NCBI GenBank assembly: GCA_902500125.1
Contig: GCA_902500125.1_4132.1
DNA: 64,000 bases
Source of the DNA: Escherichia coli
GTDB taxonomy: Bacteria > Pseudomonadota > Gammaproteobacteria > Enterobacterales > Enterobacteriaceae
Reading direction: 5' to 3' (one strand)
Shown here: piece after piece, positions 9,293 to 12,560 of the stretch
Layout of the letters: each line of letters starts with the position of its first letter
How positions within the stretch are numbered: the first letter of the stretch is position 1
Position numbers and translations under genes: made by a program
Notes under the pieces: model-generated
The model's input: the letters and a program-made list of their open reading frames with translations, nothing else
The model's database searches: none
Told to the model about the DNA's origin: nothing

Positions 9293-9394
<102 letters not shown>

Positions 9395-11184: not shown

Positions 11185-11421
<237 letters not shown>

Positions 11422-11428
11422 CTAAATC

Positions 11429-11733
11429 GGGCCATTAGCTCACGGTGGTTAGAGCAAACGACTCATCGACAATGGTGACTTTCATCAGTAATGGTGATTG
11501 AAAAACTGGATGAATTCAGGGAAATCTTAACACGTAATGGTGATGACAATCCTGAGCCAAGCCCAATAAGCGTATTGGGAAGGTGCAGAGACTAGATGGT
11601 ACAGTACGATCTTACTGTGTAATACATCATTAGCGTCCGGCATCCCTATGGGATGATGATATAGTCCGTACTATAGTGAAAACTATAGATTATACGAATC
11701 GTTAGGTACTGTGTTCGACTCACAGATGGCTCA
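11429..11733 (+). tRNA. tRNA with CAT anticodon (Met or Ile2) interrupted by group I intron
   Basis: 5' half GGGCCAT-TA-GCTC..GAGC-A-AACGA-CTCAT; 3' half AA-TCGTT-AGGTA-CTGTG-TTCGACT-CACAG-ATGGCTC-A; all four stems pair only after removing ~230 nt from the anticodon loop. Confidence 0.7.
11467..11696 (+). ncRNA. group I intron in tRNA anticodon loop (no ORF)
   Basis: follows exon U, ends in G; core-like elements AATTCAGGGAAA (P), AATCCTGAGC (Q), CAGAGACTA (R), GATATAGTCC (S) with complementary P4/P7 strands. Confidence 0.65.
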
Positions 11734-11752: not shown

Positions 11753-12457
11753 ATGAAAATAAAATTAGAATATCCATACAGTAATGATTGGGAGAATGGG
11801 TATATACAGATAAACCCTGAAGGTAGAAGAACTGTAATACTTTATAATTCTCCAACTGATAGAAGCAGTACTCAATATGCCAGATATCTATTAGCAGTAC
11901 AAGAAGGTAGATATTTAACTGAGTCTGAAGAAGCAGACCACATTGATAATGATTTCACAAATGATGATTTGTCAAATTTGCAAATACTTCATGTTGATGA
12001 ACATCGTTATAAAACACATAAGAATGGTGTGCAAGCACGATATGATTCATTTGTATGTGCTTGTTGTAATATGGAATTTACCCGTAGGCATACTAAAGTG
12101 AAATCATATACAAAATATTGTAGTGTTGAGTGTTCACAAAAAATGGTCAAGCCTCCTTCTAATACAAAGGGTGGTGAAACATCTGTTGATTATGAAAAGG
12201 TAAAAGAATATATTAACCAAGGTTTATTAGATACTGAAATTGCTAAAATAATGAATATTAGTTCAGGTTCAGTACTGAATTATAGAACCAAAAATAATAT
12301 ACCATCTAAGAAATTTGCAAACGTAAAACGTTTAGAAGATAACATAGAAGATATCAAACAACGTTTGAATAATGGTGAGAAAAAAGTTAGTATATATGAA
12401 AGTTATGGTGCTTCCAAAAATGTGTTTGCTAGATTTTTGAAAAGACATGGCTTATAA
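11753..12457 (+). CDS. HNH homing endonuclease-like protein
   Basis: track ORF; EADHIDNDFTNDDLSNLQILHVDEHRYKTH HNH-type motif plus Cys-rich KYCSVECS; immediately downstream of intron-containing tRNA. Confidence 0.65.
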   Translation: MKIKLEYPYSNDWENGYIQINPEGRRTVILYNSPTDRSSTQYARYLLAVQEGRYLTESEEADHIDNDFTNDDLSNLQILHVDEHRYKTHKNGVQARYDSFVCACCNMEFTRRHTKVKSYTKYCSVECSQKMVKPPSNTKGGETSVDYEKVKEYINQGLLDTEIAKIMNISSGSVLNYRTKNNIPSKKFANVKRLEDNIEDIKQRLNNGEKKVSIYESYGASKNVFARFLKRHGL

Positions 12458-12465
12458 ATAATTAT

Positions 12466-12538
12466 GACTCTGTAGCACAATAGGTGGTGCGATTAACTGT
12501 TAATTAATTGGTTGGGGATTCGAGTTCCTCCAGAGTCG
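12466..12538 (+). tRNA. tRNA-Asn (anticodon GTT)
   Basis: acceptor GACTCTG/CAGAGTC, D-stem GCAC/GTGC, anticodon stem ATTAA/TTAAT with loop CTGTTAA, T-loop TTCGAGT. Confidence 0.8.
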
Positions 12539-12560
12539 CAAAAAACAACGAGAGGTATAC

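Follow-up and report, generated by a model that had tools for sequence, protein, structure and literature searches.

The 64,000-nucleotide (nt) stretch of DNA analyzed here (the window; Escherichia coli assembly GCA_902500125.1, contig GCA_902500125.1_4132.1) contains a cluster of tRNA genes on its + strand, one of which, a gene with the anticodon CAT, is split by a group I intron. The split gene spans positions 11429 to 11733 (+), and the intron sits between tRNA positions 36 and 37. Taken together, the results described below leave us highly confident that a splicing-competent intron with no open reading frame (ORF) of its own interrupts a tRNA(CAU) gene at this site. The intron in this tRNA(CAU) gene of a phage is real and well conserved, and it is very probably functional.

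Exon 1 (11429-11466, +; GGGCCATTAGCTCACGGTGGTTAGAGCAAACGACTCAT) provides the 5' strand of the acceptor stem, the D arm, the 5' strand of the anticodon stem, and the loop nucleotides C32, U33, C34, A35, and U36. Its 3' end reads AACGACTCAT, the final base being the U of the anticodon CAU. The intron (11467-11696, +) is 230 nt long, begins with CGACAATGGTGAC, and ends with ATTATACG; it is preceded by a U, and its last base is a terminal guanosine (omega-G) at 11696. Exon 2 (11697-11733, +; AATCGTTAGGTACTGTGTTCGACTCACAGATGGCTCA) begins AATCGTT and provides A37 and A38, the 3' strand of the anticodon stem, the variable loop, the T arm, the 3' strand of the acceptor stem, and the discriminator A73. 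CAA directly follows A73, so the CCA end is not encoded. When run on the unspliced window, plain ARAGORN called no tRNA at 11429-11733. With the exons joined in silico, it called a canonical 76-nt tRNA(cat) cloverleaf with a 7-nt anticodon loop (CUCAU|AA). An earlier, sequence-only reading of this DNA had proposed exactly this, namely, a cloverleaf obtained only by joining two halves of a CAT tRNA across a group I intron of about 230 nt that has no ORF, lies in the anticodon loop, starts after a U, and ends in G. The covariance-model search that it had suggested as a check returned the Rfam family RF00028 (Intron_gpI) at 99.1 bits (expectation [E] value, 1.9e-24), against a gathering score of 50 bits, and no ORF overlapping the intron is longer than 34 amino acids (aa; + strand) or 38 aa (- strand).

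Uninterrupted tRNA-CAT genes occupy the same locus, between tRNA-Ser and tRNA-Asn, in the related phages WPEC5, ELP-22, and PBECO4 and in about 20 more. Alignment of the window with the intronless alleles of WPEC5 and ELP-22 placed the gap precisely at CAT|AA; thus, the insertion is not a chance arrangement. The boundaries 11466/11467 and 11696/11697 were assigned because they are the sole placement in which the exon ends in U and the intron in G, because they coincide with the gap in the intronless relatives, and because CAT is the only anticodon consistent over all intron-bearing variants. Two other placements were considered and rejected. ARAGORN in intron mode found the gene with both boundaries 3 nt upstream, which would make it a tRNA-Arg(ACG); the intron so defined would have U as its last base, CAT is what the intronless alleles contain, and the same shift yields inconsistent anticodons in the copies from Klebsiella phages. 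The Rfam alignment set the 5' end at 11374, treating the 5' half of the tRNA as an insertion and placing P1 and P2 upstream of the tRNA; a P1 formed with the end of the exon and a covarying P2 at 11482-11497 were preferred.

The split gene lies between tRNA-Ser(GCU) upstream (11185-11274, +) and tRNA-Asn(GUU) downstream (12466-12539, +), both found by ARAGORN and by Rfam. Over the 381 bases around it, identity is 99.5% with Escherichia virus TH47 (MT446416) and 99.2% with Escherichia phage Turkey5 (PQ471516), jumbo phages of about 350 kb that are kin of the Asteriusvirus/Alcyoneusvirus (PBECO4, RaK2) group. Neither the tRNA-CAT nor the intron is annotated in the GenBank records of TH47, Turkey5, and the Klebsiella phages Muenster and phiKp_21 (all four inspected), because tRNA finders do not model group I introns (PMC13011429). 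We note that the intronless tRNA-CAT genes of RaK2 (L010 2404-2481) and PBECO4 (L135 1501-1576) are also unannotated in their RefSeq records. The window allele has a G2-U71 wobble and the CAA described above, whereas the inspected intronless relatives and the Klebsiella phage copies have G2-C71 and CCA. As a search for a trace of exon co-conversion, the comparison of exon 2 was uninformative, with differences at 4 of 37 positions from Muenster and equally many from WPEC5. Promoters and terminators around the locus showed no enrichment over shuffles.

A structure model of the intron was derived from the Rfam alignment and inspection (intron numbering plus 11466 gives window coordinates; all elements are on the + strand). 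P1 pairs the end of exon 1 (UCAU, 11463-11466) with a guide GUGA (11475-11478; intron 9-12) and puts a U-G wobble (U11466-G11475) at the 5' splice site. P2 (11482-11497; intron 16-21 with 26-31) is a 6-bp hairpin with a GUAA loop. P3 joins 11506-11512 (intron 40-46) to 11634-11640 (intron 168-174) by 7 bp, and the P4-P5-P6 domain (11516-11584) comprises P4 (11516-11521 with 11550-11555; intron 50-55 with 84-89), P5/P5a (11525-11546; intron 59-80), and P6/P6a (11556-11584; intron 90-118); the Rfam alignment and the model are the evidence for both P3 and this domain. P7, which crosses P3 as a pseudoknot, forms six pairs between GAGACUA (11588-11594; intron 122 and 124-128) and UAGUCC (11662-11667; intron 196-201) and, by comparison with other group I introns, would be the guanosine-binding helix. 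An extra bulged, P7.1-like hairpin of 34 nt (11595-11628; intron 129-162) separates P7 from the 3' strand of P3, a position at which an added hairpin is a trait of subgroup IA. It shows up as a 37-nt insertion when compared with the Rfam consensus, and it forms a single long bulged hairpin, not separate P7.1 and P7.2 elements. The 3' part of the intron consists of the P8 hairpin (11641-11655; intron 175-189), P9.0 (11668-11670 with 11693-11695; intron 202-204 with 227-229; the whole element, 11668-11695), the P9 hairpin that P9.0 encloses (11671-11688; intron 205-222), and the terminal G (intron 230). In the model, a short P10 between intron CGA (1-3) and exon 2 UCG is possible; its counterpart in the Klebsiella phage genome OU509535 pairs GGUU with AAUC. 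An unconstrained minimum-free-energy fold recovered P2, P3, P4, P5a, P6, P6a, P8, P9, and P9.0 (z = -2.2).

Conservation was assessed over five variants, from the window, Turkey5, Muenster, phiKp_21, and OU509535. The copies from the three Klebsiella phages scored 104.1, 103.7, and 89.9 bits against RF00028, and OU509535 (L014 1461-1761) carries a third version of the intron at CAT|AA in a clearly different tRNA-CAT allele (GGGACTG...), with changes in the P1 loop and P9. Over the five variants, 97.0% of the modelled cells were paired, compared with 33 to 48% when the 3' partners were slid by 1 to 3 columns, a control that is inflated because the fold model was built from the window sequence. 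Both-sided changes were seen in 16 pairs, a count reached in 0 of 500 shuffles, and these were split equally between intron helices (n = 8) and tRNA stems (n = 8). Within the intron they fell in P2, P5, the extra P7.1 hairpin (two), P8, P9.0 (two), and P9. In P2, one pair is altered on both sides and one on a single side between the E. coli phage and Klebsiella phage copies; two copies close P5 with U-A and the other three with C-G; the loop-closing pair of P8 is C-G, U-A, or U-G; P9.0 reads GUA/UAC in the window and UUU/AAA in Muenster; and P9 has one pair altered on both sides. P3, P4, P6, and P7 are invariant in all five copies, and therefore it is pairing and the covariance model that support them, not covariation. 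All pairs of the P3-P7 core and of P4-P6 form, and the complementary P4 and P7 strands that the sequence-only reading had noticed pair in 5/5 variants. The four P1 pairs are identical throughout and neither support nor contradict the P1 model. All five copies keep the terminal G and the splice-site U-G wobble.

Full-length copies of the intron were found in the phage collection in only two E. coli phage and five Klebsiella phage records. The next-best blastn matches were introns in Vibrio phage terminase large-subunit genes (75 to 80% identity over intron nt 31-201; E values down to 1e-35), followed by Staphylococcus phage K-like introns (4e-11) and Twort (4e-4), all confirmed as group I by Rfam; further matches included a cyanophage psbA intron and Aeromonas phage terminase introns. 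A match in cyanophage S-SRM01 was suspected of being a tRNA intron and proved to be the psbA intron. Four group I introns interrupt the terminase large-subunit gene of Vibrio phage R16F (L005 770-2798) and three interrupt that of Vibrio phage 1.187.O (L006 791-2156), all confirmed by Rfam; both genes are annotated as separate coding sequence fragments, and their introns are the closest kin found outside the tRNA intron clade. A search for the junction pattern CGACTCAT-N6-10-GTGACTTTC in 100,044 bacterial and archaeal genomes gave 59 matches, which we regard as chance because none was followed by intron core motifs. The same junction was confirmed at 0 of 80 examined loci in IMG/VR; one of these (L245) is intron-like but has no Rfam match.

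Introns of subgroup IC3 are not expected to have an extra helix separating P7 from the P3 3' strand; the window intron has its 34-nt hairpin there. Because of this hairpin, the nearest relatives in phage protein-coding genes, and the chance nature of the bacterial junction matches, the intron looks like an IA-like element of phage lineage that entered a phage tRNA gene, not like a bacterial IC3 tRNA intron acquired along with the tRNA that carries it. P7.1 and P7.2 elements are among the features that define intron classes (PMC3984707), and subtype IA2 makes up >50% of viral group I introns (PMC11835236). The intron has points in common with the bacterial IC3 tRNA introns of Azoarcus and cyanobacteria: those are self-splicing introns of about 200 nt that also lack an ORF and lie in the anticodon loop (PMC13168695), position 36/37 is already known as an insertion site in bacterial tRNAs (PMC13011429), and a CAU-anticodon tRNA (here probably of the Ile type) and a very short P1 made of anticodon-loop bases are shared as well. 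The window intron differs in its phage host, in the extra hairpin, and in having kin in the phage collection that are protein-gene introns. To these introns (those of Twort, the K-like phages, Vibrio phage terminases, psbA, and T4 td, nrdB, and sunY) it is closest in sequence, and its own hairpin after P7 is IA-like; it differs in occupying a tRNA gene and in having one long hairpin in place of P7.1 and P7.2. IA-type introns in tRNA genes, also missed by standard finders, are known from the genes for tRNA-Asn and tRNA-Asp of Patescibacteria; those are bacterial, lie in other tRNAs, and interrupt position 35/36 rather than 36/37 (PMC13011429).

A free-standing HNH endonuclease gene follows the tRNA, as the sequence-only reading had stated. 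The ORF (11753-12457, +; 234 aa) starts 19 nt past the discriminator base at 11733 and matches phrog_14913 ("HNH endonuclease"; E value, 5.2e-56). The protein has an N-terminal nuclease domain and a C-terminal region with weak matches to helix-turn-helix and DNA-binding families. D62-H63, N75, H84, and four cysteines are invariant in an alignment of five homologues. There was no Pfam match at an E value of <0.01 and no PDB match by sequence search; the HNH assignment is that given by PHROGs and the motif alignment only. RaK2 and K64-1 encode full-length homologues (71% identity). The RaK2 gene begins 19 nt past a rather divergent tRNA-CAT that has no intron and no annotation and in which the central CGACTCATAATCG is uninterrupted. 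Pectobacterium phage CBB has a short, 134-aa homologue 26 nt after an intronless tRNA-Met(CAT). In unrelated phages, the N-terminal domain adjoins other tRNAs in Kuravirus O18-011 (L141; Arg) and Aeromonas phage P19 (L142; Gly/Asn) and is also found in the tRNA clusters of Acinetobacter phage AM24 (L143; Thr/Met) and of an IMG/VR contig (L140). No relatives were found in IMG/VR with a single-protein query; an alignment query retrieved contigs taken to be copies of RaK2, fHe-Yen9-04, and CBB, and one new contig.

These occurrences suggest that the phrog_14913 proteins form an endonuclease family specialized for tRNA clusters. Because the family habitually sits in such clusters, the adjacency of the HNH gene and the intron is partly explained. 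The T4 enzyme SegB is a GIY-YIG endonuclease, whereas the window enzyme carries an HNH motif and its family is known here from sequence. SegB cleaves within tRNA genes, its own gene is widely found alongside tRNAs, and segB of T4 and T6 resembles the window gene in being a free-standing endonuclease gene among phage tRNA genes (PMC13096335).

The HNH gene is distributed patchily among genomes that are otherwise collinear: it is present in the window, TH47, Turkey5, RaK2, and K64-1, whereas ELP-22, PBECO4, and Muenster lack it at this locus. When intron and HNH gene were tabulated together, all four combinations were found, and the two do not strictly co-occur across genomes. The window, TH47, and Turkey5 have both. 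The intron occurs without this HNH gene in Muenster, phiKp_21, and OU509535 (context inspected) and in KP13-7 and RCIP0023 (sequence match), and the HNH gene occurs without the intron in RaK2 and CBB and, by protein match only, in K64-1. ELP-22 and PBECO4 have neither. More generally, the interval containing tRNA-Ser, tRNA-CAT, and tRNA-Asn differs in nearly every relative in its HNH genes, extra tRNA-Ser genes, and tRNA-CAT alleles. OU509535 carries an unrelated HNH_3 gene (L014 1780-2205; Pfam E value, 4e-19) 18 nt after exon 2, Turkey3 (L323 1006-2237) has another HNH gene and an extra tRNA-Ser at the locus, and WPEC5 (L003 3290-3832) and Muenster (L002 3550-4095) have a NUMOD3-type HNH gene after tRNA-Asn. 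The interval from tRNA-Ser to tRNA-Asn is a hot spot for endonuclease genes and endonuclease-driven mosaicism.

We propose that the intron is a mobile passenger of phage, IA-like lineage that invaded a phage tRNA gene. Because it encodes no endonuclease, its spread would have to rely on recombination, which could include gene conversion started by the free-standing HNH endonucleases of the cluster. Co-conversion during HNH-initiated repair, as in trans homing (PMC2790892), is a plausible means of moving an ORF-less intron. A rival account, which in our estimate has an even chance of being correct, is that intron and HNH gene, two selfish elements independent of each other, happen to share a recombination hot spot and are transferred together only by passive co-conversion. 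Such independence fits their separate distributions across genomes, the variability of the locus in Turkey3, WPEC5, Muenster, and nearly every other relative, and the unequal divergence of the two elements between the window and Turkey5 (HNH protein, 91.5% identical; intron, 99.1% identical). It leaves unexplained, however, why two unrelated HNH genes lie about 20 nt from intron-bearing alleles, although with only two independent cases this could be chance.

A closer relationship would be a collaborative homing unit, in which the HNH enzyme cuts the intronless tRNA-CAU at or near the insertion site, the intron confers immunity, and both spread by gene conversion. Phage introns without an ORF are known to move by collaborative homing and by trans homing, and the T4 pair of mobE and the nrdB intron and the S-PM2 pair of F-CphI and the psbA intron resemble the present arrangement in combining an ORF-less intron with a free-standing endonuclease gene within tens of bases; the distance here is within the reach of co-conversion (PMC3984707; PMC2790892). 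The 19-nt spacing in the window, the placement of HNH homologues right after tRNA-CAT in RaK2 and CBB, and the different HNH gene beside the intron-bearing tRNA of OU509535 are also in keeping with such a unit. We nevertheless judge it unlikely. Unlike the elements of the known pairs, intron and HNH gene of the window type occur independently in relatives, members of this HNH family adjoin other tRNAs in the unrelated phages O18-011, P19, and AM24 (adjacency being a habit of the family), and RaK2 keeps its central anticodon arm uninterrupted right beside its own HNH gene. Strict collaborative homing, with a predicted cut at the insertion site, is thus not favoured by the distribution. Adjacency alone does not establish a partnership, and a passenger moved by recombination remains our preferred reading of the intron.

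As for the tRNA itself, the spliced sequence matched 5,424 of 5,426 complete E. coli genomes; the matches listed were CAT-anticodon genes named tRNA-Ile by RefSeq, with no E. coli tRNA-Met gene among them. The identity to E. coli tRNA-Ile(CAT) is 83.7% over nt 1-49, and the anticodon arm (CGACUCAUAAUCG; common arm, CGACTCATAATCG) is identical to that of an inspected E. coli CAT-anticodon tRNA-Ile gene. The C4-G69 and C5-G68 pairs, which we take to be determinants for TilS, are present. The acceptor stem of the Muenster allele (GGCCCCT/AGGGGCC) is that of E. coli tRNA-Ile2; the E. coli variant retrieved differs by one base. AUA, a rare codon in E. coli, occurs 21.3 times per 1,000 codons in the long ORFs of the window (30% of Ile codons; window G+C content, 34%), and the homologue in Salmonella phage 7t3 is annotated as tRNA-Ile. 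Because of the similarity to E. coli tRNA-Ile, the shared anticodon arm, the two acceptor-stem pairs, and the high use of AUA, the mature tRNA is probably tRNA-Ile2 rather than tRNA-Met. Elongator tRNA-Met is the label that ARAGORN and most GenBank records, including those of related phages, give to CAT-anticodon tRNAs; set against the same four observations and the 7t3 annotation, we consider this identity doubtful.

The following pathway is proposed. The precursor would be transcribed together with the + strand tRNA cluster, and the intron would fold into its P1-P9 core, with exon UCAU and guide GUGA forming P1 and the U-G wobble marking the 5' splice site. A free guanosine held in P7 would attack after U11466; G11696 would then take the guanosine site, and the 3'-OH of exon 1 would attack the 11696/11697 bond, with exon 2 positioned by the short P10 (CGA with UCG), the 5-bp anticodon stem, or both. 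The products would be a tRNA with the anticodon loop CUCAUAA and a free intron of 230 nt. Host end processing would be needed, as would CCA addition, since the gene encodes CAA and not CCA. Host TilS would then probably convert C34 to lysidine, yielding a tRNA-Ile2 that reads AUA, a codon used heavily by this AT-rich phage.

Several points weigh against this picture of a spliced tRNA-Ile2 with an intron of phage lineage. The five variants are few and related, the slid-partner control is inflated as noted, and covariation is silent on P1, P3, P4, P6, and P7, which never vary. Splicing is predicted for the tRNA-CAU intron from its membership in the group I family, the choice between Ile2 and elongator Met is decided by similarity only, and the assignment to subgroup IA comes from one hairpin together with sequence similarity. 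The G2-U71 wobble and the lack of an encoded CCA could reflect relaxed constraint. These two features, together with the absence of the tRNA from every GenBank record inspected, are what a decaying pseudogene might show, with an intron that no longer splices and a tRNA that is not made, but we regard this as very improbable, given that eight intron and eight tRNA pairs stay paired through both-sided changes, that copies about 90% identical, from phages of E. coli and of Klebsiella, have the same core sequence, that the splice-site wobble and the terminal G are kept in every copy, and that the missing annotation is explained by finders without a group I intron model (PMC13011429).

Two further observations concern other tRNA genes of the region. 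At 9293-9371 (+), right after a tRNA-Ser(UGA), Rfam gives a borderline tRNA match (29.3 bits; cutoff, 29) that ARAGORN does not call. The element lacks a D arm (4 nt in place of the expected 15), its anticodon loop reads CUUCUAA (UCU), and its variable arm is about 20 nt long; it is also found in ELP-22 (L004 767-845) and WPEC5 (L003 990-1068). The tRNA-Asn(GUU) called by ARAGORN is 84 to 85 nt long in Muenster (L002 3402-3485) and WPEC5 (L003 3141-3225) and 74 nt in the window (12466-12539), which suggests that some alleles carry an insertion or a longer arm.

When IMG/VR was scanned with the P4/P6 signature of this intron family, 8 of 82 related-intron matches fell inside tRNA genes, as called by ARAGORN in intron mode with automatic boundaries and anticodons. 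These candidates (L030, L031, L036, L037, L049, L051, L053, and L057) include Leu(UAA) interrupted at 34/35, Arg(UCU), Thr(UGU), and others; Rfam also matched a group I intron at seven of the eight, and the candidates sit in tRNA clusters. Two share one 361-kb contig, and another is on a 218-kb contig. These matches suggest that tRNA-borne introns occur in other viral contigs too, and the window locus is probably not unique. Just upstream of the intron-bearing tRNA-Arg candidates, Rfam also matched "abiF RNA", and a "wcaG RNA" match (89.7 bits) lies on the same contig (L051 3825-3861 and 9371-9468; L057 1783-1819).

The sequence-only reading had called the location in a phage tRNA gene unusual, and the literature bears this out. 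A 2014 review placed all phage introns then observed in protein-coding genes, despite the many phage tRNA genes, and explained the restriction by the location of endonuclease targets (PMC3984707). A 2026 survey of group I introns located in genes for tRNAs covers bacteria only (PMC13011429). Our full-text literature search found no paper that describes a tRNA gene of a phage with a group I intron; most subscription journals lie outside its coverage, so an earlier report is possible. Thus, tRNA-borne group I introns are known as a kind; this one has an unexpected class of host, a phage, and comes from the phage lineage of introns.

The window locus is a counterexample to the 2014 generalization, and it occurs in cultured E. 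coli and Klebsiella phages. Because two unrelated HNH genes lie near intron-bearing alleles and 8 of the 82 IMG/VR introns are in tRNA genes, we retain, as a tentative and rather improbable extension, the idea that phage tRNA clusters are an overlooked niche for introns of phage lineage. Their spread would be aided by resident HNH enzymes, and an interrupted anticodon loop would shield the allele from the phage's own or rival tRNA-cutting endonucleases, making the intron a partner in phage endonuclease warfare and not a neutral passenger. Since the intron-bearing tRNA is missing from every GenBank record that we inspected, phage tRNA counts and analyses of codon supply undercount tRNAs of this kind. 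Finally, relatives with and without the intron, each with and without the HNH gene, provide a tractable E. coli phage system that permits crosses on intron invasion.

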